A stretch of DNA of 56,249 nt from Candidatus Rokuibacteriota bacterium (GCA_031406795.1 JANOHV010000134.1:1-56249), one strand, 5' to 3'; positions 19,237 to 38,341 are shown, counted from the stretch's first letter. Made by a program: numbers and translations. The notes: generated from the letters alone by a model not told the origin.

Positions 19237-20466
19237 TCACCTCCAGACTTCGAGCTCGATCCGGTTCTCCGCCGTCTCCTCGACGAAGAGCCGCAGATTG
19301 CCGAAGTCCATGCGCTTGACCTCCTCCGCGAAGGTCTCGGTCGAGGTGTAGACCGTGTAGTTCGGAAAGTTCGCCTGGCCGATGTACCGCGACAGGCGGG
19401 CCAGCGTCCGCTCGAAACGCGAGAGGTCCATCTTGCGCAGGTTGACGACCGCGAAGGTCACCGTGCGCGGCGGGATCTGGATCCTCAATCGCTCGAGTTC
19501 GGCCTTCAGATCGGGCAGGTTGACGCTGATGCGCTGGGCGACGCGGTACTCGGTGCCGAGAAAGTCCTCCTGCGACTCGAGCACCTTCGCGAGCTTCTCG
19601 ACCGGCATGGCCGACAGCAGGTTGGTCAGGCAGTCCGCAACCTTGAACGGGTCGTCGGGAAGCCAGACCCCCTGCGGCCTGAAGCAAACGTCGCCGTACG
19701 CTTCCTGTTGCAGAGTCACCCCGAGGGTGACGAGCGCTTCGCGCAATGCGATCTTGAGCGCCTTGCGCCGGGCGATCTCGGCGAGGCGCTCGAGCTCCTT
19801 CGGCAGATCAAAGCTCTCCTGAAAACTGGCCTTCCAGCCCTGATTGTCGTAGAAACCGCACAGCGGCACCGTCGATTCGACGGCGAAAATCGTCTCCTCC
19901 GCGGCCGGAACGGCTGCCGGGGCATCGGTCGGCAGCAGGCTCCGGATGCCGGCGAAGATCTCCGGCTCGCTCTTCTCCTCGAAGCCCATGAAGATCTTCT
20001 CGACCTGCCCCTTGAGGTTCACCGAGAGCACGGTCGGGAGAAAGCCCACGCCGAGGAGCTTGCTGATCTTGCCGTCCTCGTCGAAGATCAGCGGGTAGTT
20101 GATCTTGCGCTTCTCGAACTCCTCGAAGCGCCCGATGAAGGTGCGGATGCGCGCCAGGCCCAGGTCGCTGTCGGCGTTGATGCCGATGACCTCGAGCTTG
20201 TCGCCGCCGATCTGTTCCTGCAGGCGGATCAGGCTGGAGATCTCCTCGACGCAGGGCTTGCAGTAGATCGACCAGAACGCGAGAACCAGCACCTTCTTGC
20301 CGAGCAGGGCGCCGACGTCGATCTCCTCCCCGGTGAGCGACCGCCCCTTGAATGCCGGGACGACGTCGCCCTCCTTGACCGTGTTCAGATCGCGCACGCT
20401 CGCCGAAGCCGGCGCGATCGCGCAGAGAAACGCCGTCAGTGCCAGTCCTGCCGCGAATTTCTTCAT
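19237..20466 (-). CDS. TlpA/ResA-like thioredoxin-domain exported protein with a long C-terminal extension
   Basis: Signal peptide MKKFAAG...ASA; LAFWSIYCKPC active site; cis-Pro motif GFLPT; start refined to ATG 20466. Confidence 0.8.
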   Translation of the reverse strand: MKKFAAGLALTAFLCAIAPASASVRDLNTVKEGDVVPAFKGRSLTGEEIDVGALLGKKVLVLAFWSIYCKPCVEEISSLIRLQEQIGGDKLEVIGINADSDLGLARIRTFIGRFEEFEKRKINYPLIFDEDGKISKLLGVGFLPTVLSVNLKGQVEKIFMGFEEKSEPEIFAGIRSLLPTDAPAAVPAAEETIFAVESTVPLCGFYDNQGWKASFQESFDLPKELERLAEIARRKALKIALREALVTLGVTLQQEAYGDVCFRPQGVWLPDDPFKVADCLTNLLSAMPVEKLAKVLESQEDFLGTEYRVAQRISVNLPDLKAELERLRIQIPPRTVTFAVVNLRKMDLSRFERTLARLSRYIGQANFPNYTVYTSTETFAEEVKRMDFGNLRLFVEETAENRIELEVWR

Positions 20467-20485
20467 GACTCTGCCCTCCCTGGGC

Positions 20486-21154
20486 TCATCCGATGAAAGC
20501 GCCTGACCCGCTTCGCGTCGCCCTGCGGCGATGACGCAGGAACTCGACAACTCCGGGCAACACGGAAACGACGATGATCACCATGATGACGAGCGTGAAG
20601 TTCCGCTTGACCATGGGGATGTTGCCGAACAGGTACCCGCCGACGACGAACAGCACGACCCAGACGATGCCGCCGACGATATTGTACAGCAGGAACCGGC
20701 CGTAGTTCATGCTGCCGATCCCCGCGACGAACGGCGCGAAGGTGCGGATGATCGGCATGAACCTGGCGATGATGATGGTCTTGCCGCCATGCTTTTCGTA
20801 GAACTTGTGCGTGCGATCCAGGTGCTCCTTGTTCAGGAAGCGGGTACCCGTCCCGTGGAAGACCTTGGGGCCGACCAGGTGCCCGATCCCGTAGTTCACC
20901 GTGTCCCCCGCGATCGCGGCGACGCTGAGCAGGCCGAGCAGCCAGCCGACTTCCAGGCTGGTGGTGGCGGCAAGCGCCCCCGCGGCGAAGAGCAGCGAAT
21001 CGCCGGGGAGAAAGGGCGTCACCACGAGGCCGGTTTCGCAAAAGACGATCAGGAACAGGATCAGATACGTCCAGAGCCCGTAGTCCCGGATGATCAGCTC
21101 CAAATGCTTGTCGAGATGGATGAAAATGCCGAACGCTTGCTGAAGAAGTTCCAT
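20486..21154 (-). CDS. dedA: DedA family membrane protein
   Basis: ETGLVVTPFLPGDSLLF and ARFMPIIRTFAPFVAG signatures. Confidence 0.93.
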   Translation of the reverse strand: MELLQQAFGIFIHLDKHLELIIRDYGLWTYLILFLIVFCETGLVVTPFLPGDSLLFAAGALAATTSLEVGWLLGLLSVAAIAGDTVNYGIGHLVGPKVFHGTGTRFLNKEHLDRTHKFYEKHGGKTIIIARFMPIIRTFAPFVAGIGSMNYGRFLLYNIVGGIVWVVLFVVGGYLFGNIPMVKRNFTLVIMVIIVVSVLPGVVEFLRHRRRATRSGSGAFIG

Positions 21155-21915: not shown

Positions 21916-21940
21916 AGCGTTCCCGTGCCGGCCGTTGCGG

Positions 21941-24900
21941 TCACTTTCCCTCGGGGAAGTGATAGTTCTTGTAGTGCTCGAGCAGCGACTCGCCGTGGCA
22001 CTCCGCGCACAACGTCCGATCGAGGGCGTTGCCGCGAACGCGCAGGAAACTGTTCGTGACGTCCCCCTCGACCGGCATGCCGGTGCCGGAATTGCTGACG
22101 TCCGCCTCCCAGCGGTGCACGTCGTGGCAGGAGATGCAGGAGAGATACCCGCTGTCCGTCTGCGTGCCATCGTCCGCGAAGACCGGGATTCCGGCCGGAC
22201 CGGCGGCGGCCCTGCGGGTGATGGTGAACTTGCGCGGCAGCAGGCCCTGGCCCGGGTAATTCACCAGGTGGGCCTCCGTGCGGGGCGGCACGTGCGCCCC
22301 CAGATCGTTGCCCGCCCGATGACAGCTGGTGCAGGTCCGACTGCTCTCGTCGCGACCTGCGCCGAAGCCGCGATTCCACAGCACCCGGGCCTCGGGCGCC
22401 CGGTGCATGGCGTGACAGGCCCCGCAGACCCCGCTCGCCTCCGCGTTCTTCCCGTCGCGGTTCACGGCCGCCGGCGCCGTCACCCGAAGGTCGTGGTCCG
22501 AGCCGACGACCATGGACTTCTCGGCGTGGCAGGGGAAGCACAGCGGGGCGTAGCCGTCGGCCCCCTGCCGCAGGAAACTCGTCGCCGACTTCGAGGTCGC
22601 CCCGGAGCCGCCGGCCGGCGTCCAGCGGTGCGGGTCGTGGCACGTCGCGCAGGCGATCCTCCCGCCGGCCTGACGCTTGCCGGCGAGCCCGTACAACGGC
22701 AGGTCCGGACCGAAGTCCTGCCCCGGGCTCACGCCGACCGGGTGCCCGCGCTCACCGACGGTCGTGCCCGAGGCGATCTTTCCGGCCGCGTGGCAGACTT
22801 CGCACGGATCGGTCCCCGGCGCGGGCTTCGCACCCGGTTTCTGCGGTTGCGGCGGGGTGGCGGCCAGCGGTTGCGGCCCGTGGACGCGGTGGCAAGGGTC
22901 ACAGACCCCGGAACGCAGGGCGCCGGGTGAAGCGGACGCACCGCCCTTCGGACCCGTCTGCGTCAGATCGTGGGGTGTCCCCGCGACAGCGGCATGCGCG
23001 GGGTGACAGCCGGCGCACAGATCCGCCGATCCGCCCGCCGGACGCACCAGAAATTTCGTCGCGGCGCTCCCCGACCCGGACGCCCCGCGGTCGGCCGGGT
23101 CGGCCGGGTTCCAGCGGTGCGGGTCGTGGCAGCCGCCGCAACCCACGCTTCTGGCCCCCTTGACGCCGGCCACGGGTGACATGGGATGAAAGCGCTCGGC
23201 AACCACGGCGCCGTCCGCAGCGCCGCCCGAGCGATGACAGACGCCGCAAAAATCCCCGAGATCGGCCGCGGCGCGATCACCGCCGCCGCGCGCCGCCGGC
23301 CAACTCGCGACCGCAAGAGGATCGTGCACGCTGTGGCAGGGCCCGCACGTCGTCCCCTGGGTCTTCGCCAGATCATGGGGGGTTCCGGCGACCACGGCCT
23401 GCGCGGCGTGGCACCCAACGCACAGATCCTTGCCGCCGCCGCCAAGGCTTTCGCGCAGAAATCGGCCGTCCGGCCCGCCGCGATGGACATCGTGGCAGGT
23501 GGCGCACGTGATCACCCCCTGGCGATACCGCCGGCCGTCGCTCCAGAACAGCGGCAGACCCGCCGTCCCCCGGCCAGGGGGGGGCGCCATCCCCAGCGGG
23601 TGGTTCGTGGCGCCGCCGAAAGGCGCGCCGGCCGCGCCGGCCCCGTGGCAGGCGGCGCAGAGCCGCTCGATTGCGCTCTGACCCTCGACGGGCTCGCCGA
23701 GCGGGATGCGCCACCCGTGCTCTCCGTGACAACCGCCGCAGAGTCCCCCGACCGCCGATGCCCCCTTGGCGCTCTGCGGCGCGCGGGCCGAGCTGTGCGG
23801 CGTAGACGCGATCGACGCTTCCCTCGTGTGGCAGAGCAGGCAAGAATAGGACTCGCGCGGAATCACCAGACCCGGGGTCGCGGGGCGTCCCCGGTGGGCG
23901 CGGTGACAGGTCGTGCAGGTGAGCTCGCCCCCCGGGCCCGTCGTCCCGCCGGCCTTGATGAACGACGCGTCGACGCGCGCCCGCCGCGGCTTCACCGAAA
24001 TCGGGTGAGCCCCGAGGGCGGCGGTCTCGGGGTCGAGCGAATTCTGCGCCGGGTGGCAGTAGAGACAGAGCGCCTCCCGGGTCGTCACCAGCTGCGGCGT
24101 GCCGACCCGGCCCGCGTGGGCGCGATGGCAGGAGAGGCAGGTGATGCGCCCCCCGGGTGCGAAGAAGGCCCCGGATTTCGCCAGGCGCGCGCCCTGGGCC
24201 CGCTCGTCCTTCGCGACACCCACCTCCACCGGATGATTCCACGCCTCGCCTTTGCCCGGACCCGCGACGTCGGCGTGACAGCGCCGGCAGATCGTGTCGG
24301 GCTCCGCCCACGTCGCGGCCAGCAACCCCCGGCGGGCTCCCGGCTTCTCGGCGTTGTGCATCCGGTGACAGGATAGGCAATTCGCCTGCTCGGCAGACAC
24401 CGGGTGATTGGCCTCGGACTTCCCGGACGAGAAGTTCTTCTCATGGCACTGGCGGCACAGACGCCCCTCCAGCGCGCTTTTTTCCAGCATCATTCGCCCG
24501 CCGGCCGTCTTGTGGACCTTGTGACACCCGAGGCAGGGCGGGCCGCTCTTGCCGGTGACGTGCGTGGTCAGGCCGGGACCCCGCCCGGCGCGACTGGGGT
24601 TATCGCCGTGACACGGCCCGCAGAGGCTCTCTGCGCTGGCCGCGCGGATCAGGCCCTCCCCCTGCGCCCGGTGCACCGCGTGACAGCCGCCGCAATCCTG
24701 CGGCAGGCCCTTCTCCGCGGCGACCGCCGGGTGCTCGCCCGAGTCGCCCGCGCGCCGTCCCGGGTGGCAGGTCGCGCAGAACGCGTAGCTGCCCTGCGGA
24801 TAGCGCATGAACGGCCGGACGTTCGCCGCCTGCACGTGGGGCGTGTGGCAGGAGCCGCAGGTGACCTTCCCCGCGGCAGGATGGTGACGGCCGCTCCAGA

Positions 24901-25237
24901 GATTCCGCCGGCCATCGCTGACGATGCCGTTGTGGCAGCTGTAGCAGATCCCCGCGTCCCCCGCGCCGGGGCCGCCGGGCGGTTTGAAAACGATCAGCCC
25001 GGCAGCGGCGGCCGGCGCCTTGTCGAGGTGACAGACGCCGCAGCGGCGCGGCAGGATGCTCTCGAGCGCGGATGCCGCCGGCTGGCCCGGAGCGCCGCGG
25101 CCGCCCGGGGGGGGCGTGGGGGCAGACGCACCGGTCTCCAGGCCGCGCGCGGGCAGGCCCACCAGCAGGATCAGCAGCGCCGCGAGCGCTGCGCGGCGGA
25201 TCGGCACCCTACTCCAGAGCGCGGGCGAAGCCCGCAA
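21941..25237 (-). CDS. Very large multiheme cytochrome c (30 CxxCH, doubled-CXXCH type)
   Basis: 30 CxxCH motifs counted, alternating CxxCHxxH and CxxCH with HP motifs; N-terminal hydrophobic signal; start uncertain (25237 or GTG near 25207). Confidence 0.92.
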   Translation of the reverse strand: MRASPALWSRVPIRRAALAALLILLVGLPARGLETGASAPTPPPGGRGAPGQPAASALESILPRRCGVCHLDKAPAAAAGLIVFKPPGGPGAGDAGICYSCHNGIVSDGRRNLWSGRHHPAAGKVTCGSCHTPHVQAANVRPFMRYPQGSYAFCATCHPGRRAGDSGEHPAVAAEKGLPQDCGGCHAVHRAQGEGLIRAASAESLCGPCHGDNPSRAGRGPGLTTHVTGKSGPPCLGCHKVHKTAGGRMMLEKSALEGRLCRQCHEKNFSSGKSEANHPVSAEQANCLSCHRMHNAEKPGARRGLLAATWAEPDTICRRCHADVAGPGKGEAWNHPVEVGVAKDERAQGARLAKSGAFFAPGGRITCLSCHRAHAGRVGTPQLVTTREALCLYCHPAQNSLDPETAALGAHPISVKPRRARVDASFIKAGGTTGPGGELTCTTCHRAHRGRPATPGLVIPRESYSCLLCHTREASIASTPHSSARAPQSAKGASAVGGLCGGCHGEHGWRIPLGEPVEGQSAIERLCAACHGAGAAGAPFGGATNHPLGMAPPPGRGTAGLPLFWSDGRRYRQGVITCATCHDVHRGGPDGRFLRESLGGGGKDLCVGCHAAQAVVAGTPHDLAKTQGTTCGPCHSVHDPLAVASWPAARGGGDRAAADLGDFCGVCHRSGGAADGAVVAERFHPMSPVAGVKGARSVGCGGCHDPHRWNPADPADRGASGSGSAATKFLVRPAGGSADLCAGCHPAHAAVAGTPHDLTQTGPKGGASASPGALRSGVCDPCHRVHGPQPLAATPPQPQKPGAKPAPGTDPCEVCHAAGKIASGTTVGERGHPVGVSPGQDFGPDLPLYGLAGKRQAGGRIACATCHDPHRWTPAGGSGATSKSATSFLRQGADGYAPLCFPCHAEKSMVVGSDHDLRVTAPAAVNRDGKNAEASGVCGACHAMHRAPEARVLWNRGFGAGRDESSRTCTSCHRAGNDLGAHVPPRTEAHLVNYPGQGLLPRKFTITRRAAAGPAGIPVFADDGTQTDSGYLSCISCHDVHRWEADVSNSGTGMPVEGDVTNSFLRVRGNALDRTLCAECHGESLLEHYKNYHFPEGK

Positions 25238-25363
25238 GACAATGGAGGCTTCTGCATGAGCACACCGGCAGTGCTCGCCTGCTGATCGGCATGGAGGTCT
25301 GTCTCACCGAGAGATGATGATCGTTCTCGCGCAGAGCACAAATGCTGCAAAGAAATGCCATGC

Positions 25364-25564
25364 CTACTCCACGGGGCGCTTGAACAGGTAAAAGGCCCCG
25401 AGGACCTCTCCCTGGGCGCTCGTGAAGGGCGTGCTGCCGACGAGTTCCCAGCCGTCCTCGCCCGCCTTGTTCATCTTCATCAGATTGACTCCCGCCTTCG
25501 GACGTCCGCCGAAAATCTCGGGGTTGGACTCGTAGAGCTGCCCATATTCCCACTTCTTCGCCAT
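25364..25564 (-). CDS. DUF4177-like small protein
   Basis: KWEY...NKAGEDGWELV...YLFKRP pattern; GGAGGA RBS. Confidence 0.75.
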   Translation of the reverse strand: MAKKWEYGQLYESNPEIFGGRPKAGVNLMKMNKAGEDGWELVGSTPFTSAQGEVLGAFYLFKRPVE

Positions 25565-25629
25565 CGATTCCTCCCAACCCTGTTGTCGTGCTCGTGGGGA
25601 CGGGTTTCACCCCGGCCCCCGACCACCAG

Positions 25630-26565
25630 TCAGCGCGCGCCGAACTCCCAGGCGCTCACGCGGCCGGCGCCCATCTCTACGATGTATGCGGTGCTGCCGC
25701 GGACGGCCACCCCCGTCGGGCTCTCCAGGGCAAGAGGCCGCCCCTCCTCGCACAACACCCCCTGGTAGCCACCCTGAGAGTCGAAGATCTGCAGCGACCC
25801 GAAATAGGCGTCGGAAACGAGCACGCGATCACCCTCGAGGATCGCCAGCCCGGCCGGCCGGAAGAGGGTTCCCTCCGTCGCGCCGAATTCGCCGATGGCC
25901 GCCAGGGGGTCCCCCTTCGGCGTGAACGCGAGAATCCGGCTGTTGAGCGAGTCGGTCACCAGGATCCGGTCGAGGCTGTCCTGAACGATGCGGAAGGGCG
26001 CGCGAAACTGCGTCGCATTGTCGCCGAGCCCGCCCCAGGAGGCCTGCTTCGCGCCATCCAGCGAGAACACCCTCACCCGGTGGGCGCGATTGTCCGCGAC
26101 GAAGCAGCGCCCGCGCGAGATCAGGATCCCCGTGGGACTCGAATTCTCTCCCGGGTCGCCGGCCGGAAATTCGCGCGCCTGCTTGCCCTTGAGATCGATG
26201 GCGACGATGCGTCCATCGCCGGAGGCGGCCAGAAAGAGCTGGTCGGCGCCACCGAAGCCGATTCCGAGCCACGAAGCGCCCTCCGGCCCGGGAAGCGGGA
26301 TCGTCCCGATGCTGCGCCCTTGCAGATCGAGCACGGCAACCCGCCCGTTGAGGTCGTCCAGCACGTACAGGCGCTCGCCGGCGAGCACCAGGTCGGCCGG
26401 TTGACGGAAGGCGACCTTGCCGGCTTCGCGCACCGAGAAGACCCGGCGCGCGGGAATGCACGCCCCCGCAGCCTCCTCGGGAGCGGCTGCGGCAAGCAGC
26501 GCCGCGAGCACGGCGAACAGAACCGGCGTCAGCTTCGGCAGGGGGCCACCACGGCGGGAACGCAC
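25630..26565 (-). CDS. Exported NHL-repeat (six-bladed beta-propeller) protein
   Basis: FRQPADL, FRAPFRI, LFRPAGL, LESPTGVAV repeats; hydrophobic signal; start refined to GTG 26565. Confidence 0.85.
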   Translation of the reverse strand: MRSRRGGPLPKLTPVLFAVLAALLAAAAPEEAAGACIPARRVFSVREAGKVAFRQPADLVLAGERLYVLDDLNGRVAVLDLQGRSIGTIPLPGPEGASWLGIGFGGADQLFLAASGDGRIVAIDLKGKQAREFPAGDPGENSSPTGILISRGRCFVADNRAHRVRVFSLDGAKQASWGGLGDNATQFRAPFRIVQDSLDRILVTDSLNSRILAFTPKGDPLAAIGEFGATEGTLFRPAGLAILEGDRVLVSDAYFGSLQIFDSQGGYQGVLCEEGRPLALESPTGVAVRGSTAYIVEMGAGRVSAWEFGAR

Positions 26566-26578
26566 ACGGCCCTCGCGC

Positions 26579-27193
26579 TTACCGAATTTGCGGGAAATAC
26601 CACTTCTCGCCGGGTGCGAGCGTGAAGTAATTCGCGAGCCGCTCGAGCGCCGCCACGCGCGCCGGCGAGGAGCCGGGGCGCGCGAGGGCGCCGATGTCTC
26701 CGGGCCGATGGCAGCCACCGCAGGCCGGACCACGCTCAAAACAGCGTCGCCCCGCCATTGCGGCGGAGCGCAGGAGCGCCAACTGGTCCTTCGACAAGCG
26801 CTCACGGGGAACAATTGCGAGAAACGCCGTGGACCCGGCCTGGACCTGCCACGCGGGCGCCGGGCGCGAGCCGGCGGCCGCCGGCCAGTGACAGAGCAGG
26901 CAGTCCATGCGCGTGGCGTGCTCGTTGAGCAAGGCGCGATCCACGCCTCTCCCGGGGTGGGGCAGGCCGGGATGACACTCCGCGCACCAGACGGCCGGGC
27001 CGGCCGGCGAGAGAATCGCGGCCGGCGGGTGTAGCAGCGCTCCCGCAGTCAATTTCGTCTCCAGCGCCGCCAGTTCGGCGGTCGTCGGCGCTGCGGCCGG
27101 GGCACCGGCAATCAGCGTGCTCGCCGCAGCCGCGGCGAGCGCCGTGAAGACCACGAACACCGCAATGCGCTGCCCAAGTCCGGTCCGGTTCAC
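26579..27193 (-). CDS. Triheme cytochrome c
   Basis: CAECH, CLLCH, CGGCH; N-terminal signal/TM; GTGA overlap with the upstream gene. Confidence 0.8.
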   Translation of the reverse strand: MNRTGLGQRIAVFVVFTALAAAAASTLIAGAPAAAPTTAELAALETKLTAGALLHPPAAILSPAGPAVWCAECHPGLPHPGRGVDRALLNEHATRMDCLLCHWPAAAGSRPAPAWQVQAGSTAFLAIVPRERLSKDQLALLRSAAMAGRRCFERGPACGGCHRPGDIGALARPGSSPARVAALERLANYFTLAPGEKWYFPQIR

Positions 27194-28173
27194 GATTCCC
27201 CACCCGCGGCGTCGAGTTCACGGATCGCCTCCTGGGCTTTGCGGGCCAGGGGGTGAAACGGGTCCGCGGCGAGAAATTGCTGATAGGCCTCCCGGGCCAT
27301 CACCCGTTCTCCCATGCGAACCAGGACCCGAGCCATATTGTAGCGCGCCTGAGAATAGTCGGGGTAGAGCTCGAGCGCGCGTCGATAGTGGAACAGCGCC
27401 TCGACGTAGCGCTCCTCGAGCGCGAAATGGTTGCCCTTCTCCAATTCCTCCTGGACCTGCGCCTTCTCGTGAGACTGCCGTTCGCGCGCCTTCTCCTCGG
27501 GGGCGGCCAATTGGTCGGCGCGCTCCGCCTCCTCGCCGAGATGACGCCGCAAAGCGCCGGGAACCTTGACCCGCGCTTTCTCGGAATCCAGCGAGCCGGT
27601 GATCCAACTCCACTCCGGCCACCAACGCCCCTCCCAGATCAGGACCCCGTAGAGGTGCCAGAGGCTGGAGACGAAAAGCAGCAGCGCCACGCCGCGGTGC
27701 AGGGCCGCGAGCTGCGGCATTAGGGCGAGAGAGCCGAGGCGGCCCCAGAAACCCACGCCAGCGCCGGTCGCGCCGAGAAGCGCCAGCGCGAGCAGGGTCC
27801 ACCAGTAGAACGCCTTCTGGCTGGGGCGGTACTGATCGGCCACCGGCGGCGGCGCCGTCTCGCCGAGCAGAAAGCGCATGCCGGCGAGTGCGGCCTCCCG
27901 GTCGCCGCGGCTCCAGCGCAGGGGGAAGCCGTCCCAACCGCGGGATTCGACATAGCCCCGGACTGCCAGATAGATCAGGTGGTAGCCGAGAACCCCGATC
28001 GCGACGAAGCCGAAGAGGACATGCCAGCCATGGATGGCGGCGGCCCCGGCCCCGAACGGGCGGCCGAGCACCAGCCCGGAGGCAAGGGCACTCCCGACCG
28101 CGAGCGCCAGCAGCGCATGCTGCGTCCGCTGATTCAGATTCATCCGCGGTATGCCGGTCGCCATGGTCGTCAT
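27190..28173 (-). CDS. Di-heme cytochrome b (FdnI/HyaC-like) fused to a C-terminal TPR domain
   Basis: Four TM helices with His in QHALL, WHVLF, LHRGV, WHLYG; YRPSQKAFYW; TPR ALFHYRRALELYPDYSQARYN; ATG 28173 overlaps the upstream TGA. Confidence 0.8.
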   Translation of the reverse strand: MTTMATGIPRMNLNQRTQHALLALAVGSALASGLVLGRPFGAGAAAIHGWHVLFGFVAIGVLGYHLIYLAVRGYVESRGWDGFPLRWSRGDREAALAGMRFLLGETAPPPVADQYRPSQKAFYWWTLLALALLGATGAGVGFWGRLGSLALMPQLAALHRGVALLLFVSSLWHLYGVLIWEGRWWPEWSWITGSLDSEKARVKVPGALRRHLGEEAERADQLAAPEEKARERQSHEKAQVQEELEKGNHFALEERYVEALFHYRRALELYPDYSQARYNMARVLVRMGERVMAREAYQQFLAADPFHPLARKAQEAIRELDAAGGES

Positions 28174-29030
28174 CTCCCCCGCGCCAGACCGATAGCCGCG
28201 CGCGCGACCAGACCAGCCACCAGCGCACCGGCGAGCAGGGTCAGCGCCAGGGACAGCGGCGACATCCTCGCCCGACCCCGGGGCAGCGGATTCATCGAAG
28301 CCCCGGCGACGGCGGATTCGCCGAGCGCGCCGTGACAGGCCCCCTTGCGGCCGGTGCCGAGGGCGCCATTGGAACAGGTTTCCGCCAGGTGCTTGCGGTT
28401 CACCGGGGATTCCGGCGCCGAAGCGGGACGCACCCGGTGGGCGCTGTGGCAGTCCGGACAGGAGGGCGCCCGGCGGTTGCCGCCTGCGAGCGCCAGAAAA
28501 TGACGGTCGGCGAACCAGGCCGCGACCATCGGGCTTCCCCGGTGGCAGGCGGCGCACTGGCGGGCCTCCGCGAGCTTGTCGCGCGCGGTAGTTTCCCGCC
28601 GCTCCGGCGACGGATGGCAGATCAGGCACCCGATCTTGCGCGAGCGCGCGCTGCCGTGGACGCTTGCCGTGTACTCCCAGTAGAGTCCTTCGTGCGAGAA
28701 GTCCCGGCCGCCGGTGCTCTCTCCGTGGCAGGACTGGCCGCAGCCGACGTCGCGATGCTCCCCGTGGGGGATGGACGCGATGTCGGCGTGGCACTCGCGG
28801 CAACCGACATCGCCGTGCGCCGATGAGTCGAATTTCCCGGCGGCGATGCCGAGGGCACGGGCCTTCCCGGCTTCGCGAACGGCGAACCCGGCGAGACCGT
28901 GGCACTCGAGGCACCCTTCCTCGTCGCCGGCCGCGGCGGGGCGGGGCAAAGCGAGCGCCGCCGCGGCGCAGACCGCCGCAACGAGCAGCCTGCCGACAGC
29001 ACGACCACTATTCCACGTAGAAACGGACAT
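28170..29030 (-). CDS. Membrane-anchored multiheme cytochrome c (5 CxxCH plus CX3CH and CX12CH)
   Basis: CLECH, CRECH, CLICH, CAACH, CPDCH, CGQSCH, CSNGALGTGRKGACH; signal peptide and C-terminal TM helix; start uncertain. Confidence 0.85.
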   Translation of the reverse strand: MSVSTWNSGRAVGRLLVAAVCAAAALALPRPAAAGDEEGCLECHGLAGFAVREAGKARALGIAAGKFDSSAHGDVGCRECHADIASIPHGEHRDVGCGQSCHGESTGGRDFSHEGLYWEYTASVHGSARSRKIGCLICHPSPERRETTARDKLAEARQCAACHRGSPMVAAWFADRHFLALAGGNRRAPSCPDCHSAHRVRPASAPESPVNRKHLAETCSNGALGTGRKGACHGALGESAVAGASMNPLPRGRARMSPLSLALTLLAGALVAGLVARAAIGLARGR

Positions 29031-30330
29031 CAACGTGCACCTCGGCACGTACTCTATCATAGTCCCAGGAACGTACCGAACCTTCCACGGCCTTGATCAG
29101 GGACTCGAAGCGGGCGCGATCTCCGGCCTGCGGTCGCTCGACGGCGACATCTTCGACCTCGCCGCTGTCGTTGATCGTGAGCACGAGGTAGACCTGGCAC
29201 CAGCCCTGCTGGAAGTTGCTCTTGCGGATGATCACTTCCGGGTACGAAATCGCATCGTAATCCTCCTCGATTCGGGAGGGGGGATAGCTCTTGATGATCA
29301 TCTGGACACGCCGGTCCAACTCGCCCTCGTGGGAGACCTTGGCCGCTTTGCCCCCGCGTCCGGAACCCGCACCCCCAACGCCACTGCCATGCCCGGATCC
29401 GGCGCCCGACCCCGCCCCATCCCCCCCGCCCGACCCCCGGCCGCCGCCCGTCCCGCGCCCCGCCGGGGCATCGACGTAGTCGCCGAAGAACGAGAGCTTG
29501 CCGCCGGGACCCAGCGTGCGGGAGAGCGGGGCCGGCGTGATGTGCCCGGAGAGGTCCTTGAAGACCGCCGTGTACGTGCCGGGCGGAAGATCGTCGAGCA
29601 GGGCGCGCCCCGGCCTGCTCAAGTCCAGCGGACGACCGTCGGGGCGGTAGATGGTGAATTGGGCGCCCGGCTCGTTGCTGTCGACGACCAGCTCGGTGCT
29701 GCGCCGGTACTTGCCGACGAAGACGATCTGCCCCTTCGCCACCAGGTTCTTGGTCTGCACCGGCGGCGTCGCGAAACCCGCCACGGGGTTGAAGGTGGCG
29801 GTATAAGACCCCGTTGGCGCTCCCTTGCGAACCCAGAAGGTGCCGGACCCGCGGTATTCGGCCGGCCCGGTGACGATGAACGAGGCTGCCGGCAGGTCGG
29901 TCACGACGCTCACCGAGTTGTCGCCCTGCTCGGCGAGCCGCGCTTTGTCCGGTTCCTTCTCCACCAGTTCCTGCTCCATCGCCGGGGAAAGCTCGGTCTC
30001 CTTCGGAGGCTCGGGACCCTGCTCCTTGACCTTGGGCGCTGGCGCGGGCGGGGGTGCCGATTTCTCGCCGCCGCCGACCTTCCCTTCGGTGGCGGCGGGA
30101 ACCTGGGCCATGCGCGGCGGCGCGGGGACCGTCTCGCGCGGCGGCGCGATGTCGCGCACCCGGCGGATGACCATGAGCCGCTCCTTCTTCTGCTCCTCCT
30201 GCGCCCGCTGATAGAGCCGCCCCCAGCCGAAGAGCACCACGAAGTGCACCACCACCGCTCCGATGATCGCAATGACGGCGACGAGCCGTTCCGCGCGGGT
30301 GATCTGACCTTCGGGGTTTATCCGCGGCAT
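29008..30330 (-). CDS. TonB/TolA-like energy transducer with two PEGA-like repeats and a Gly-rich linker
   Basis: Single N-terminal TM with His (AVVVH), Pro-rich spacer, C-terminal QVYLVLTINDSGEVEDVAV...SVRSWDY resembling TonB_C; follows exbB-exbD. Confidence 0.75.
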   Translation of the reverse strand: MPRINPEGQITRAERLVAVIAIIGAVVVHFVVLFGWGRLYQRAQEEQKKERLMVIRRVRDIAPPRETVPAPPRMAQVPAATEGKVGGGEKSAPPPAPAPKVKEQGPEPPKETELSPAMEQELVEKEPDKARLAEQGDNSVSVVTDLPAASFIVTGPAEYRGSGTFWVRKGAPTGSYTATFNPVAGFATPPVQTKNLVAKGQIVFVGKYRRSTELVVDSNEPGAQFTIYRPDGRPLDLSRPGRALLDDLPPGTYTAVFKDLSGHITPAPLSRTLGPGGKLSFFGDYVDAPAGRGTGGGRGSGGGDGAGSGAGSGHGSGVGGAGSGRGGKAAKVSHEGELDRRVQMIIKSYPPSRIEEDYDAISYPEVIIRKSNFQQGWCQVYLVLTINDSGEVEDVAVERPQAGDRARFESLIKAVEGSVRSWDYDRVRAEVHVDVRFYVE

Positions 30331-30352
30331 GGGCTGAGCGTACTGCGGCGGA

Positions 30353-30760
30353 CTACTTGCCTTCCTTTTCCGTCGGGAGCGCGATATTGCTGATCCCGAC
30401 CTGGAGCAGTTCGTCGAGCACGTCGACCACGCGCCGGTAGGGCACCCCCTGGTCGCTCTTGATCAGGACGAACCCCTCGGGACGGCCGGCCAGCTTGCCG
30501 AGCACGGCTTTGCCCAGGCCGCGCAGTTCGACCTTCTCTCCGTCGAGAAAGAGCGTCTGCGCAGGATCGATCGAAATCGTGACGTTGCGCTCCTTGATGT
30601 CCTGCTGCGTCGTGGTTGCCGGCAGACGCATCTGGATGCCGCGGGAGACGTCGAAAACCGTGCTCACCATGAAGAAGATGATCAGCAGAAAGGTGATGTC
30701 CGCCATCGAGGCGGTCGGGATCGGCTCGTCGTCGTCGCGGAAGCGGTTCTTAAATCTCAA
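30353..30760 (-). CDS. exbD: ExbD/TolR family biopolymer transport protein
   Basis: PTASMADITFLLIIFFMV with the conserved TM Asp; IKSDQGVPYRRVVDVLD. Confidence 0.9.
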   Translation of the reverse strand: MRFKNRFRDDDEPIPTASMADITFLLIIFFMVSTVFDVSRGIQMRLPATTTQQDIKERNVTISIDPAQTLFLDGEKVELRGLGKAVLGKLAGRPEGFVLIKSDQGVPYRRVVDVLDELLQVGISNIALPTEKEGK

Positions 30761-31415
30761 GGTAGTCCCCGCCGATCATGTCGCGCTGCGTGGCGCGCTG
30801 GGCGACCTGCTCCTCGAGCTCGCCGAGCGCGTCGAGGAACTTGATCGAGCTCTCCTCCATCTCGAGAACGAAGCGGTTGATGCGGTGCACGAAGAAGTAC
30901 TGGATCGTGACCGTCGGGATCGCGATCGTCAGGCCCGCCGCGGTGGTGATCAGTGCCTCGGCGATGCCGCCGGCAACCACGCCGGGGTCGCCCATGCCGG
31001 CCTTGGCGATGGACTCGAAGGCGCCGATCATCCCGGTGACCGTCCCGTAGAAGCCCAGCAGCGGCGCCATCTTGCCCATCGTCGCGAGGATGACGAGATT
31101 GCGCTCCAACTTCGCGACTTCGACCCCGGCCGAGCTTTCGATGGCCTTCTCGATCTCCTCGCGACTGCGGCGATGCTTGCGCAGGGCGGCGAGGAAGATC
31201 GAGGAGAGCGGGCCGCGGTACTCCTCGCAGATCCGGGTGGCTTCGGCGAGCTGGTTGGAGCCGAGCGCCGTGTTGATGCGCTCCATGAACTCCGTGACGT
31301 TCATCCGGGCGCGATGCAGAAACCAGGCGCGCTCGATGATGACCGCCAGCGCGATGATCGAGCACAGCAGCAACGGCCACATGACCGGGCCGCCTTTGAC
31401 GAAAATCTCCAGCAC
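30750..31415 (-). CDS. exbB: ExbB/TolQ/MotA proton channel protein
   Basis: GGPVMWPL, APLLGFYGTVTGMI, GIAEALITTAAGL. Confidence 0.92.
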   Translation of the reverse strand: MLEIFVKGGPVMWPLLLCSIIALAVIIERAWFLHRARMNVTEFMERINTALGSNQLAEATRICEEYRGPLSSIFLAALRKHRRSREEIEKAIESSAGVEVAKLERNLVILATMGKMAPLLGFYGTVTGMIGAFESIAKAGMGDPGVVAGGIAEALITTAAGLTIAIPTVTIQYFFVHRINRFVLEMEESSIKFLDALGELEEQVAQRATQRDMIGGDYLEI

Positions 31416-31473
31416 GATTTCCCCGCTCCTTTTCTCCCCCCGACGGACGGCACCTGACGGCCGGGCTGCCGGC

Positions 31474-32913
31474 TCAGTGCCTCCCGTGGCAGGGGGTGCA
31501 TTGCTCGTTGTACGTCGTCAGCCGCAGGCGCTTCTCCTCGTCGGCGCCGATGCCCCCCGGCCCCTTGAGCAGGCCGCGCTCGTGCGGGTTGTGGCAGGTG
31601 ATGCAGGTCACGCGGGCGTCCTCCTCGAGCGGCAGCCGCACCTTGCGCCGCTCCTCGTACTCGCGCAGGTTGTCGGCCATCGTCCTCGTCAACGGCTTGA
31701 CGTGGTCCACGCCGCTCGGGTGCGGCGCGGTCGGGTGGCAGGAGATGCACAGCGCGGTCAGCGTGTCGGTGTAGCGCAGGCCGTCACCGCCGGCGCCGAC
31801 GTTCGGCGCGACCACGTGGCAGTAGAGACATTTCTTCTGGTAGATCTCGCCGCCCTCGTCAAGCTGGTCGTGGGGGTTGAGGGTGGAGAAATTCTTCCCC
31901 TCGTGGCAGCGCGCGCAGAACTCCTCGGTGGTGTTGTAAGGCCCCCCGCGCAGGAAGCGGGAGTTCTCGCGGCCGGCCGCGCCCAGGCACTCGGGGGGCT
32001 TGTGGCAGCTGATACAGACAATCGCCTCTTTCTCCAGCGGCGTGTGCGAAAAATCCATCTTCCAGGTCGCCGGGGTGGATTTTACCCCCAACGGGTGATG
32101 CTCGACGCCCGGGTGGCACCGCTGGCAGAGCCGGAGGGATTCCCCGGGGAAGCGCAGTACAATCGGCGCCCCCGGCTGCGGCGTGTCCGGGTGGCAGGCG
32201 AGGCAGAAGATCTTGCCGCCGTGGGGGTTCAGGTTCGCCGAGTCGGCCAGAACCTTCGGGAAGTCGTCCCGCAGCGAAGGAAAGAGCAGCGAGCGGCCAT
32301 GGGCCCGATGGCAGTTCAGGCAGGTCGTGCCGGCGACCGGGACGTTGCCGCGGGGGTAGTGAGAGCGATCGACGCCCGCGTGGCAGGAGCGACAGAAGGT
32401 TTCAACACCCTGGGAAGTGAAGCGCGCCGGTGTGGCCGCCCCGGCCTTGAGTTCGGCCGCCGGCTTGTCGTGGCAACCGGCGCAGTCCATCGCGTCGTGC
32501 GAATTCTCGAAACCCTCGCCGCCGCCGCCGACCGCGGCGGAACCGGTGTCCAGCGGCGGCGCGAACGATACCGCGGGGGCCGCCGGCGAGGAAACCCCGG
32601 GCGCACGCGGGGCGGCGCGTTCGGAAACGGGCGGGAGGATGACGAGCCAGAAATCCTGCTTGCCCTCTTTGTGACAGGAGCGGCAGCTGCCCGAAACGAC
32701 GGCGTGCGGTTCGTCGCTCGAGGAGAAGATCTTCGTCCGCCCGGGGCCGGATCCCGGGGCCCCGCCCTTGTGGCAATGCAGGCAGCCCTCGCGGGTGTGC
32801 GGATTCAGGACGGCATCGTCGCCGGCGGCCGCAACCGCGCCGATCGACAGCAGGGCGACGAGCACCGCCGGGGTGAAACGTGTGCGAATCTGCATGGCGG
32901 TGATGAGAGTCAC
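31474..32913 (-). CDS. Periplasmic multiheme cytochrome c (13 CxxCH)
   Basis: 13 CxxCH motifs counted; repeated NPH and HP distal-ligand motifs; signal peptide; start GTG 32913 or ATG 32895. Confidence 0.9.
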   Translation of the reverse strand: MTLITAMQIRTRFTPAVLVALLSIGAVAAAGDDAVLNPHTREGCLHCHKGGAPGSGPGRTKIFSSSDEPHAVVSGSCRSCHKEGKQDFWLVILPPVSERAAPRAPGVSSPAAPAVSFAPPLDTGSAAVGGGGEGFENSHDAMDCAGCHDKPAAELKAGAATPARFTSQGVETFCRSCHAGVDRSHYPRGNVPVAGTTCLNCHRAHGRSLLFPSLRDDFPKVLADSANLNPHGGKIFCLACHPDTPQPGAPIVLRFPGESLRLCQRCHPGVEHHPLGVKSTPATWKMDFSHTPLEKEAIVCISCHKPPECLGAAGRENSRFLRGGPYNTTEEFCARCHEGKNFSTLNPHDQLDEGGEIYQKKCLYCHVVAPNVGAGGDGLRYTDTLTALCISCHPTAPHPSGVDHVKPLTRTMADNLREYEERRKVRLPLEEDARVTCITCHNPHERGLLKGPGGIGADEEKRLRLTTYNEQCTPCHGRH

Positions 32914-33308
32914 TCCTCCTGCCGCAGTTCCTTGACCGCGGAGTGCATGACGAAGATGCGCTTGTTGTTGCCGCCCGGGTCCGAGGGGAACAGCAGGAAC
33001 CCGTAGCGCGAGAGATTGACGCCGAGGGCCGTACCGCGCATGGTCTCCCCGTCGATGAACGTCAGCAGGTAACGACGGCCGATCGTGCCCTCGGGGATGC
33101 GCAGTTTCTGCTCGCGGTACTCGCGGTTCCCCTGGAGGCTGTGCACGAAGAAGATCGCCTTGAGTTCATCGATGTTGATCGTGGCGGGCCCGCCGGGCGC
33201 CGCGGGCTCCTGGTTAAGGGTAAAAGTGGTGCGGTTGGGGGCGAAATCCGACGTCGTCCCCTTCGCAACCGCCCCGTTCTTGTAGCGCACCACCACCTTG
33301 TGCAGCAT
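32910..33308 (-). CDS. Conserved small protein (DUF6982-like) with an internal two-fold repeat
   Basis: KVVVRYKNGAVAKG / YLLTFIDGETMRG; LKAIFFV; start refined to ATG 33308; family name from recall. Confidence 0.65.
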   Translation of the reverse strand: MLHKVVVRYKNGAVAKGTTSDFAPNRTTFTLNQEPAAPGGPATINIDELKAIFFVHSLQGNREYREQKLRIPEGTIGRRYLLTFIDGETMRGTALGVNLSRYGFLLFPSDPGGNNKRIFVMHSAVKELRQEE

Positions 33309-33336
33309 CGCTTGTTTCTTTCCCCGAATCCGCCGC

Positions 33337-33365
33337 AGTGTCTCAATATCCGCATCCGGTGTCAA
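33337..33365 (-). promoter_or_regulatory. Putative sigma70 promoter of the cytochrome/ExbBD-TonB cluster
   Basis: Minus strand TTGACA-N17-GACACT with TG before the -10. Confidence 0.4.
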
Positions 33366-36248: not shown

Positions 36249-38018
36249 ATGAAAAGCGGCAAAGACAAACGACCAGCCCCCAAATCGTCTCGCACTGCTG
36301 TTTTGCGCAAGACTCCTACCGGCATCCAGGGCCTGGACGAACTCACCGGCGGCGGCTTGCCCCGGGGGCGGCCCACGCTGATCTGCGGCGGCGCCGGCTG
36401 CGGCAAGACGCTCCTGGCCATGGAATTTCTCGCGCGCGGCGCGGAGGAGTTCGGCGAGCCGGGCGTCTTCGTCGCCTTCGAGGAGCGGAGCGAAGAGCTG
36501 GCGACGAATTTCGCCTCACTCGGCCACGATCTCAACGCGCTGGTCGCGCGGAAGAAACTGGCCATCGACTTTGTCGCCATCGATCGCGGCGAACTCGAAG
36601 AGACGGGCGAGTACGATCTGGAAGGGCTGTTCATCCGGCTGGGGTACGCGATCGACGGCATCGGCGCCCGGCGCGTGGCGATCGACGGCATCGAGGCGCT
36701 CTTTTCCGGGTTGAAGGACAGCGCCATCCTGCGCGCAGAGTTGTGCCGGCTGTTTCGCTGGCTCAAGACCAAAGGCGTGACCGCCGTTATCACCGCCGAG
36801 AAGGGCGAAGGCGGGCTGACCCGCCACGGCCTGGAGGAATATGTGGCCGACTGCGTGATCGTGCTGGACAACCGGGTGACCAACCAGATTGCCACCCGGC
36901 GGTTGCGGGTCGTCAAGTATCGCGGTTCCGGCCACGCCTCGCGCGAGTATCCGTTCCTGATCGACGAGGGCGGCGTCTCCATCCTGCCGATAACCTCGTC
37001 GGGGCTGAGCTACGAAGCGAGCACCGAGCGCGTTTCCTCGGGCATCCCGCATCTGGATGATATGATGGGCGGCCGGGGCTACTATCGCGGCAGCAGCGTG
37101 CTGGTTTCCGGCACGGCGGGCACGGGCAAGACGAGTCTTGCGGCGCATTTCGCCCAGGCGTCAGCCGCGCGCGGCGAGCGCTGCCTCTGGTTCGCCTTCG
37201 AGGAATCGCCGAGCCAGATCATCCGCAACATGCGCTCGATCGGCATCGATCTCGCGCCGGCGGTGCAAAGCGGGATGCTGCGCCTGCATGCGGATCGCCC
37301 GACGACATTCACTCTGGAGACGCACCTGTTGGCCATCCATAAACAGGTAAACGAGTTCAAACCCCGGAGCGTAGTCATCGATCCGGTCAGCAACTTCCTG
37401 GCGATCGGCAGTGACTTCGAGATCAAGGCGATGCTGACGCGTCTGACGGATTTTTTCAAAATACGGCAGATCACCTCGCTGTTCACCAGCCTGACCCCGG
37501 GCGGCTCGGTCGAGGCGGCCACCGAAACCGGAATGTCGTCGCAGATGGACACCTGGCTGCTGCTGCGGCACATCGAAAACGGCGCGGAGCGCAATCGCGA
37601 GCTGCACATGCTCAAATCGCGCGGCATGGCCCACTCGAACCAGGTCCGTGAGTTTTTGCTCACCGACCATGGCGTGGAACTGCGGGACGTCTACCTCGGG
37701 CCGTCGGGGGCCATGCTCACCGGCAGCGCGCGCCTGGTCCAGCAGGCGCTGGAAGAAGCACGGGCAGTGGTCGGCAAGCAGGAGATGGAGGCCCAAGAGC
37801 GCGAACTGGAGTACAAACGGCAAGCCATGGACGCGCAGATCGCCGCGCTGCGGGCCGAGTTCGAAATCGTGCAATTGAAAGCCTTGAAACTGGTCGCGCA
37901 GGACGAAGAGCGCGCCAGGGTGGTGGCCGACGATCGTGGTCAGATGGCCAAACAGCGGCAGGTCGATGTGAGGAAAGCAGGCAACAAGACGAAGCCCCCG
38001 TCCGGAAGGTCCCGATGA
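36249..38018 (+). CDS. kaiC: Circadian clock ATPase/kinase KaiC (KaiC2-like, C-terminal coiled coil)
   Basis: Two RecA domains: GGAGCGKT and [12 protein letters not shown] in both, KYRGS/KSRG; SS at the phosphosite position (MSSQMDTW). Confidence 0.95.
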
Positions 38019-38341
38019 AAACCAAGCCCGAGGGCAACTCGGCAAGAGCGGCAACGGCGAAACCCGAAGAGCAATGGACGCTGCGGCTTTACGTGGCGGG
38101 GCAGACGCCCAAGTCCGTGACGGCCTTGGATAACCTCAAGCGTCTCTGTGAGGAACGACTGCGAGGACGCTACAAAATCGAGGTCATCGATCTGTTGAAA
38201 AACCCGCGTCTGGCCAAGAATGACCAGATCCTGGCCATCCCGACGCTGGTGCGAAAGCTGCCGGAGCCGGTGCGCCGGATTATCGGGGACCTCTCCAACA
38301 CCGAGCGCGTTCTGGTAGGGCTGGATTTACGGCATGAATAG
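38015..38341 (+). CDS. kaiB: Circadian clock protein KaiB
   Basis: [12 protein letters not shown]...[27 protein letters not shown] coupling to kaiC. Confidence 0.95.

Follow-up and report, generated by a model that had tools for sequence, protein, structure and literature searches.

The 56,249-nucleotide stretch of DNA analyzed here (the window; Candidatus Rokuibacteriota bacterium, GCA_031406795.1, JANOHV010000134.1:1-56249) carries a block of genes in which an ExbB-ExbD-TonB motor is embedded among multiheme cytochromes c and a cytochrome b. The linkage between motor and cytochromes is near certain, and comparison of the sequences suggests that a quinol-to-periplasm electron-transfer chain acquired a motor of its own, since the motor sits between genes that are adjacent in motor-less relatives and has been kept together with a TPR domain, a DUF4177-like protein and an added domain of the cytochrome c12. 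The window is contig C8 of the host genome G000 (4.1 Mb, 99.9% complete); other genomes, contigs and loci are likewise designated by G, C and L numbers.

Gene order and conservation of the block

Eleven genes, all on the minus strand, occupy positions 21941-33308 of the window. Five of their ten junctions overlap (-4, -11, -23, -4 and -4 bases) and the rest are gaps of 13 to 126 bases, in agreement with an earlier note on this DNA, made from the sequence alone, which had described eleven co-oriented and often overlapping genes over this span. Ten of them form the conserved block, in the order c12/13-exbB-exbD-tonB-c7-cytochrome b(TPR)-c3-NHL-DUF4177-c30. The features, with lengths in amino acids (aa) and open reading frames abbreviated as ORFs, are as follows.

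32910..33308, minus strand: DUF6982 protein, 132 aa, cytoplasmic (PF22478, 81 bits); start chosen from orthologs
31474..32913, minus strand: c12/13, periplasmic 13-heme cytochrome c (13 CxxCH, alignment)
30750..31415, minus strand: ExbB/TolQ-type motor subunit, 221 aa (PF01618, MotA_ExbB, 115 bits)
30353..30760, minus strand: ExbD/TolR-type motor subunit, 135 aa (PF02472, 96 bits)
29008..30330, minus strand: TonB-type energy transducer, 440 aa (AlphaFold model, fold matches)
29281..29319, minus strand: TonB-box-like strand, residues 338-350 of the transducer (profile of 134 sequences)
29011..29283, minus strand: TonB/TolA C-terminal fold, residues 350-440 of the transducer (fold matches, ESM Atlas)
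28170..29030, minus strand: c7, 7-heme cytochrome c with signal peptide and C-terminal membrane anchor (CxxCH count, orthologs)
27190..28173, minus strand: FdnI/HydC-type cytochrome b with C-terminal TPR domain (PF01292, 44 bits, plus TPR)
26579..27193, minus strand: c3, 3-heme cytochrome c with N-terminal hydrophobic segment (3 CxxCH)
25630..26565, minus strand: NHL beta-propeller with signal peptide (PF01436, 52 bits, alignment); start approximate, ORF open to 26814
25364..25564, minus strand: DUF4177-like protein, 66 aa, without signal peptide (Pfam score and ESM Atlas, see below)
21941..25237, minus strand: c30, 30-heme doubled-CxxCH cytochrome c, 1098 aa, with signal peptide (30 CxxCH)
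21940..21963, no strand: 10-pair hairpin between c30 and a convergent HAD gene, a possible but weak terminator

The DUF6982 gene, which the earlier note had included in the cluster, is confirmed by its family match but is a lineage-specific first gene outside the conserved core, seen only in the loci of the G000 phylum. The four cytochromes c carry 13, 5, 3 and 30 CxxCH motifs (51 in all). Beyond its five CxxCH, c7 presents CX3CH and CX4-13CH motifs, both kept in 26 of 27 orthologs, the 27th (G001) being frameshifted and unscorable for atypical heme motifs. On this evidence c7 is a 7-heme protein and the block total is 53 c-type hemes, matching the roughly 53 that had been estimated before.

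Loci were first sought by a contig pattern scan, which returned five loci only and missed divergent TonBs, and profile searches found more. The TonB family is present in 6/6 genomes of the G000 phylum, 2/11 of the G006 phylum and 9/251 of a Desulfobacterota-like phylum, assigned from the names of related proteins; the c12 profile adds two genomes to the latter, with exbB next in each, bringing the count to 11/251 in six families. No TonB family was found in the two genomes of the G175 phylum, and in 145 genomes from other phyla the TonB-tip profile had a single weak match (G123, E 3.6e-4), whose surrounding 8 kb contain no module gene. The complete ten-gene order was recovered on one contig in G000, G001, G003, G005, G006, G333, G379, G341, G373 and G535 and in five metagenome loci, the blocks of G001 and G003 carrying frameshifts that resemble sequencing errors; the remaining loci are consistent parts cut by contig ends, except in one family (f256), considered further below.

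Gene order is fixed in three phyla despite 31-55% cytochrome identity, and in the other phyla the cytochromes share 31-41% and the TonB tip 29-46% identity with the window proteins. In 44 of the 45 metagenome loci found by TonB alone, c7 follows tonB, the 45th ending 113 bases past tonB, and exbB follows every close c12 ortholog among the 251 genomes (11/11). The neighborhood conservation that the earlier note had named as a check is therefore observed, with exbBD-tonB and these cytochromes found side by side, in an unchanged order, in all three phyla. Because the genomes in these counts are kin and not independent, the counts speak for deep retention rather than for many origins, as does the position of the 23 module ExbBs on one side of a branch. 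The hosts are several groups of sediment and vent bacteria, Deferrisoma- and Deferrimicrobium-like within the Desulfobacterota-like phylum: G333, a single contig of 4.2 Mb, holds a complete block whose DUF4177 protein is 94% identical to one named Deferrisoma sp., and a second host lineage matches Deferrimicrobiaceae names.

No sigma-70-like promoter was found upstream of the window block and no regulator, BccR-type or other, directly upstream, and the hairpin past c30 is weak as a terminator, since 8 terminator-like sites were found against 6.3 expected. RNA run X1 (share 0.05) yielded low-depth short contigs across several block genes, possibly DNA carry-over, and lends no support for expression or co-transcription. 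Elsewhere in the window, a secreted-looking 4621-aa protein with NHL repeats and carboxypeptidase-regulatory-like and Ig-like domains is encoded at 22-13887 (minus strand), where long plus-strand ORFs without Pfam matches look like shadows, and at 36249-38341 (plus strand) a kaiC-kaiB pair precedes genes for a PAS/GAF histidine kinase and an HD response regulator.

The motor, its TonB-type protein and the cytochrome chain

ExbB and ExbD keep the proton-path residues, and the motor is intact. In ExbB, T125 and T158 are invariant in 23/23 sequences and E153 is kept in 21/23; in ExbD, Asp21 occupies the column of the conserved transmembrane Asp, which is kept in 23 of 24 rows, the remaining row being truncated. 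The exbB of G002 (L080, L068 and L031), close relatives of G000, groups with the Deferrimicrobium-like copies, and the flanking c13 and tonB are G000-like; this is an in-place exchange of the motor genes by a module-type copy between lineages.

The assignment of the three motor genes made in the earlier note holds for ExbB and ExbD by Pfam and for the TonB-type protein by the fold of its C-terminus. The latter protein consists of an anchor with His29, invariant in all 24 rows that include the N-terminus, a Pro-rich linker, two beta-sandwiches, a Gly-rich linker and the TonB C-terminal domain; its AlphaFold model presents an anchor helix, two CnaB/prealbumin-like beta-sandwiches (Z up to 8.6 per domain) and the C-terminal domain. 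The beta-sandwiches occur in the G000 phylum only, other lineages having 263-319 aa forms without them, and the linker of block TonBs spans 120-310 residues. Ser-x3-His is the TonB anchor motif, and its Ser position in the block TonBs is Ser in 7 and Ala in 17 rows. In one of the lineages whose TonB is without beta-sandwiches, a PEGA-domain protein is encoded directly upstream of c12 (L046:5622-6884, also G379 and G341).

Searches with the whole protein were uninformative as to the tip: there was no Pfam or NCBIfam match, including to PF03544, Foldseek returned only pilin-like domains among the rows shown, and a representative-protein search was filled by beta-sandwich repeat matches, leaving the tip family unmapped. 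The C-terminal domain nevertheless has the TonB fold, the Z values being middling alone but three methods agreeing. The tip matches TonB domains with Z 7.0-7.8 (root-mean-square deviation 2.7-3.2 over 78-81 residues) and also TolA domain III (1tol, Z 7.0; 2x9a, Z 6.3), ESM Atlas places it with TonB clusters (0.96), and its sequence matches in the PDB, weak as they are (E 0.7-1.6), are all TonB. Within it, P364 and W422 are invariant, G376 is conserved and the TonB-type YP motif is kept. The same tip family also forms the C-terminus of a 2076-aa HEAT-repeat protein (L119:6393-12623, G374:C59), encoded away from any module genes.

A box-like strand, modeled by AlphaFold as strand E342-349 and conserved in the profile of 134 sequences, precedes the TonB fold and resembles the TonB box of a G001 receptor. 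Plain TonB-domain matches begin at residue 350-358, whereas 1tol, a g3p-TolA fusion, is already matched from residue 343, at its chain residue 42, which, going by the entry title, we take to be the phage ligand part. The simplest reading is that the strand may fill the ligand site, leaving the tip self-plugged. Covariation across the 134 tip sequences (effective about 70) revealed no sign of strand pairing. The strict TonB-box pattern is not conserved in any cytochrome or NHL protein (0-3 of 18-27 rows each) and hits TonB itself in 13/27, and complex prediction of the tip with c13 and NHL gave 0.31, 0.47 and 0.01 in the runs, with a mark of 0.32 and three controls at 0.00, a result that we count neither way.

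Together, cytochrome b and c7 are built like an inner-membrane quinol:cytochrome c oxidoreductase. The former has five helices and five His (19, 51, 65, 159 and 173) invariant in every ortholog covering them, and its TPR domain is probably cytoplasmic; the membrane anchor of the window's c7 contains no His, and c7 is fused to cytochrome b in G006, G373 and G535. ORF 27218-28228, considered as the cytochrome b gene, was discarded as being in the wrong frame and without family match, the true frame (27190-28173) carrying PF01292 and TPR. The other cytochromes (c3, c12/13 and c30) and the NHL propeller are exported. The c12/13 protein has 13 hemes in the window and 12 in most other lineages; its N-terminus bears an additional one-heme domain, attached through a low-complexity linker, that is absent from motor-less relatives in the alignment, distant c12 relatives aligning only from about profile position 100-280 onward; the AlphaFold model of c13 (mean predicted local distance difference test score 42.6) is unusable for fold comparison. 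Full-length c30 orthologs present 29-30 CxxCH, and the window c30 has 33 further His. Throughout the block the numbers of distal His fit bis-His electron carriers, and no CxxCK occurs, in c30 or elsewhere. TlpA/redoxin-type thioredoxin genes, possibly for cytochrome maturation, lie near the block in several lineages (window 19237-20550, minus strand; L015:5941-6954; G373, G505 and G535).

The 66-aa protein scores under the Pfam cut-off for DUF4177 (16.9 bits, cut-off 25) and is grouped with DUF4177 clusters by ESM Atlas (0.94); its match to the Sp36 family model NF053529 is weak (25.8 bits, cut-off 50). With 55-92% identity across lineages, it is among the best-conserved products of the block.

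Motor-less relatives and outer-membrane proteins of the hosts

Twelve genomes hold only distant c12 relatives, and the loci of 11 were examined. Seven of these genomes (G419, G347, G330, G543, G369, G452 and G513) present c7-b-c3-NHL-multiheme blocks without exbBD or tonB, and in five of the seven the c12 relative (c8-15) lies directly before the c7-type gene, at the position that the motor occupies in the window block. Three features track the motor. A TPR domain is found on cytochrome b in 8/8 motor-linked genes scanned (in G334 as a separate adjacent ORF) versus 0/10 motor-less ones; strong DUF4177 matches occur in 10/251 genomes, all motor-bearing, and in 0/7 motor-less ones; and the N-terminal one-heme domain of c12 follows the same distribution. 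The TPR domain and the DUF4177-like protein would both be cytoplasmic, on a side of the membrane where ExbB and cytochrome b are the only parts within their reach. The NHL gene is present in motor-less blocks too, and in several of these c3 is fused behind cytochrome b. The MtrB-type porin was detected in 4/7 motor-less versus 0/11 motor-bearing genomes of the Desulfobacterota-like phylum, a contrast that is suggestive only; outside this phylum, MtrB-like genes occur in 3/8 motor-bearing genomes (G000, G001 and G006).

No TonB-dependent receptor lies beside the block in any locus examined. Pfam scans of the large window ORFs (34 + 7, partly overlapping) revealed no TonB-dependent receptor or porin family, and genome-wide PF00593 and PF11854 searches gave no match on contig C8, as the earlier note had also stated for the window. 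Among 17 motor-bearing genomes tested for receptors (G006 and G157 being outside the count), the receptor plug domain is absent in four, namely G373 (100% complete), G535 (95%), G374 (91%) and G475 (97%), the last with only c12-exbB of the block seen; G373, G535 and G374 also have no receptor barrel over cut-off. The other two ExbB-type genes of G373 belong to Tol-like and gliding-like loci. In two of these receptor-less genomes, loci L130 (G373:C12) and L133 (G535:C40) encode exbB, two exbD-like genes, a TonB-C protein and large lipoprotein-like genes, and resemble gliding (Agl/Glt) clusters. With four genomes devoid of the plug, including a 100% complete one, receptor service is an unlikely reason for the linkage, even though drafts can miss a gene.

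Two receptors are encoded in G000, one BtuB-like beside an ABC transporter and a second beside a geopeptide-type radical SAM gene (L001:464-3302, G000:C23, the receptor preceding the radical SAM gene, whose best model is a partial geopeptide maturase match under cut-off). Its ExbB-type genes are two only, the block copy and tolQ, the latter in a separate tolQRA-tolB locus on C13; genes beside that locus (L008:12519-18001) resemble, by our assessment of N-terminal sequence, dsrMKJOP. The block ExbBD of G000 may also power uptake via a short canonical TonB encoded after secF, serving the two receptors, and G001 and G379 are in a like position.

The cognate beta-barrel that the earlier note had proposed to seek was looked for in G000 through a heuristic list of 17 candidates, six of which were examined: an MtrB barrel (PF11854, 262 bits) does follow an MtrA-like decaheme gene on C24 (L141:5417-8548), but it recurs in only one of the 16 other motor-bearing genomes. 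In G006, an 806-aa barrel-like protein is encoded six genes upstream of c12, among 4-5-heme cytochrome and NHL genes (L037:7547-9967, C215). Besides the MtrAB pair, G000 encodes an 11-heme c plus b fusion (C170) and, in all, 55 ORFs with at least 3 CxxCH (569 motifs). The genome is cytochrome-rich and one more cluster is unremarkable; it is the motor inside the cluster that needs explaining. Another cluster of 14-15-heme cytochromes and NHL genes (L038:1-16571, G000:C156) contains, downstream of a 26-heme cytochrome, one with 70 or more CxxCH that is truncated at the contig end (3871+ aa).

Proposed function, rival explanations and known systems

The reading that we favor, held with about as much doubt as conviction, is that a dedicated motor docks, threads or gates a CbcBA-like quinol-to-periplasm heme chain at the outer membrane and is coupled to it on the cytoplasmic side. 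Electrons would flow from quinol through cytochrome b to c7 and c3 and on to c12 and c30, and ExbBD would convert proton flow into a pull on TonB. The tip would not bind the TonB boxes of ordinary receptors, its own box-like strand perhaps occupying the site, and would engage either the chain itself, most likely at the added N-terminal domain of c12, or an unrecognized outer-membrane partner; this engagement would dock, thread or gate the long wire at the outer membrane. On the cytoplasmic face, the TPR domain and the DUF4177-like protein may tie the motor to the quinol oxidase, so that wire contact tracks the energy state of the cell. A more specific version, which we regard as rather doubtful, is a mechanically actuated conduit in which the self-plugged TonB would grip a multiheme cytochrome and pull the 30-heme wire to or through the outer membrane without a porin from the operon, the TPR domain and sP36-like protein switching the motor from the cytoplasm; if true, the proton-motive force itself would act as the gate on respiration to outside acceptors. 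The earlier note had likewise proposed that the motor may serve the assembly, export or gating of a heme wire rather than the import of nutrients. The linkage behind this proposal is conserved, but any such role of the motor is still conjecture, as is the "PMF-energised" (proton-motive force) electron transfer.

Several observations weigh against the motor acting on the heme chain at the outer membrane. No outer-membrane protein accompanies the block, the MtrB of G000 being rare among the other hosts and the G006 barrel-like protein having no Pfam or NCBIfam match and no match in G000, and no binding partner of the TonB domain was found. No lipobox is present in any block cytochrome, which leaves a surface location of the cytochromes unsupported. 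The porin contrast rests on kin, three of the four motor-less genomes with MtrB being one family, and G000, G001 and G006 hold the motor together with MtrB-like genes. In family f256, DUF4177-c30 is on another contig and other genes follow NHL. The branch that sets the 23 module ExbBs apart from 14 paralogs has a support (89/95) under the starred threshold for monophyly. Finally, 13 of the 17 motor-bearing genomes do have TonB-dependent receptors, and in G000, G001 and G379 the module is the only ExbBD outside tol and mot loci.

This last point is what an ordinary Ton system would predict, the motor powering B12, peptide, heme or siderophore receptors elsewhere and its place in the operon matching heme or iron supply to cytochrome synthesis. 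We consider this quite improbable: four of the 17 genomes keep the motor without the plug domain, separate canonical TonBs exist in G000 and, next to a receptor, in G379, a receptor in G341 and G333 has its own adjacent exbB, and the co-acquired TPR, DUF4177 and c12 domain would be left unexplained. The earlier claim that the motor does not serve an ordinary receptor thus agrees with the four plug-less genomes but is weakened in G000, with its two receptors and no other non-Tol ExbBD; an ExbBD shared with another TonB is compatible with the reading that we favor. Passive linkage, whereby an old insertion has been carried along with a mobile cytochrome island without functional tie, is highly improbable and largely refuted by the co-occurrence described above. 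The block is patchy (11/251; 2/11) and looks horizontally spread, with exbBD exchanged in G002, L068 and L080, but in none of the loci seen had DUF4177 and TPR outlasted lost or decayed motor genes, and the exchanged exbBD was replaced in place by a module-type copy.

Reductive iron or metal acquisition, in which the heme chain would reduce Fe(III) in the periplasm or at the surface and the motor would energize ferric entry via a non-canonical outer-membrane channel, is unlikely. Ton motors classically serve iron uptake, and in Deferrimicrobium-like hosts (L046, L053, L079, G379 and G341) genes that we take, from sequence features, to be fur-like, feoB-like and dtxR-like lie directly ahead of the block on the same strand. 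This neighborhood is, however, restricted to one lineage, the feoB-like and dtxR-like genes of G000 being on other contigs, 53 hemes would be a high iron cost for assimilation, and the neighbors of the motor-less relatives are respiratory porin-cytochrome genes. Tol- or gliding-like envelope work, with the motor off the electron path and moving outer-membrane or peptidoglycan components so that the 30-heme protein can span the cell wall, is distinctly unlikely. It would fit the match of the tip to TolA domain III as well as TonB, the higher score of ExbB with the TolQ model (114 bits) than with the ExbB model (87 bits, both below cut-off) and the six-bladed propeller in the operon, much as tol-pal includes TolB; yet the block has no Pal-like lipoprotein or TolB, separate tol loci exist, NHL is also present in motor-less blocks and the tip retains its TonB-type YP motif.

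A motor long kept in a quinol-oxidase/multiheme operon, in hosts partly without receptors, points to an energy-dependent step in building or switching the heme wire, and is relevant to the way in which metal reducers that have no obvious porin-cytochrome genes deliver electrons to the outside. Specific markers for the block are its TonB tip and the 66-aa gene, and the complete block in a Deferrisoma-like genome makes the idea testable.

Known Ton-type motors serve uptake, envelope upkeep or gliding, and the electron conduits that we know of across the Gram-negative envelope are passive. Like Ton systems, the block has the motor residues, the anchor His, a long linker and the C-terminal fold, and it differs from them in having no adjacent receptor, an anchor Ser that is mostly Ala and an extra box-like strand. 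Tol-Pal (TolQRA-TolB-Pal) and Agl-Glt gliding employ ExbBD-type motors in non-transport work via a TonB/TolA-fold tip, but the block contains no TolB, Pal or gliding-type genes, and such loci are separate in the same genomes. As in MtrAB systems there are doubled-CxxCH multihemes, but no barrel gene adjoins the block, the barrel-like gene of G006 being the exception.

The Desulfovibrio ferrophilus DFE cytochrome-NHL clusters also have no apparent porins and share multihemes and NHL propellers with the block, and no motor is mentioned in the accessible part of that paper (PMC9769857). Methanosarcina sP36 is described as a 61-aa hexamer that binds and regulates the membrane transporter AmtB1 (accessible part of PMC10714827); the 66-aa block protein is under the cut-off of that family and the block has no ammonium-transport genes, making the likeness a lead for a regulatory role only. 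In literature on motors with multiheme clusters or on these hosts, the block was not found described by title or abstract opening, supplements and subscription journals being outside the scope; TonB-ExbBD is treated as iron uptake in the accessible parts of 10.1101/855817, PMC8478452 and PMC13664910, and "ExbB" does not occur in the accessible main text of a paper on Deferrimicrobium (PMC9386147).

The closest counterparts of the electron-transfer part are Geobacter quinol oxidoreductases, as far as these are described in the accessible part of 10.1101/2021.04.15.440034. CbcBA (Cbc5, GSU0593-0594) combines a seven-heme c with a C-terminal anchor and a separate four-helix diheme b, CbcB contributing three conserved His and CbcA the fourth, whereas CbcL (Cbc1, GSU0274) has an FdnI/HydC-type b domain with five potential heme-ligating His, nine c-hemes and six helices. 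The block also encodes a separate seven-heme c with a C-terminal anchor and a b cytochrome, a likeness to CbcBA in build; its b cytochrome has, however, five invariant His and TPR, the window c7 anchor is without His, and the accessible description of Cbc5 includes no motor. With CbcL it shares the number of His in the membrane part, though not their helix placement, and the c-b fusion in G006, G373 and G535, but it has seven hemes and five helices, and c and b are split in most hosts. By analogy, the c7-b pair may work like CbcBA or CbcL, fitting neither definition fully.

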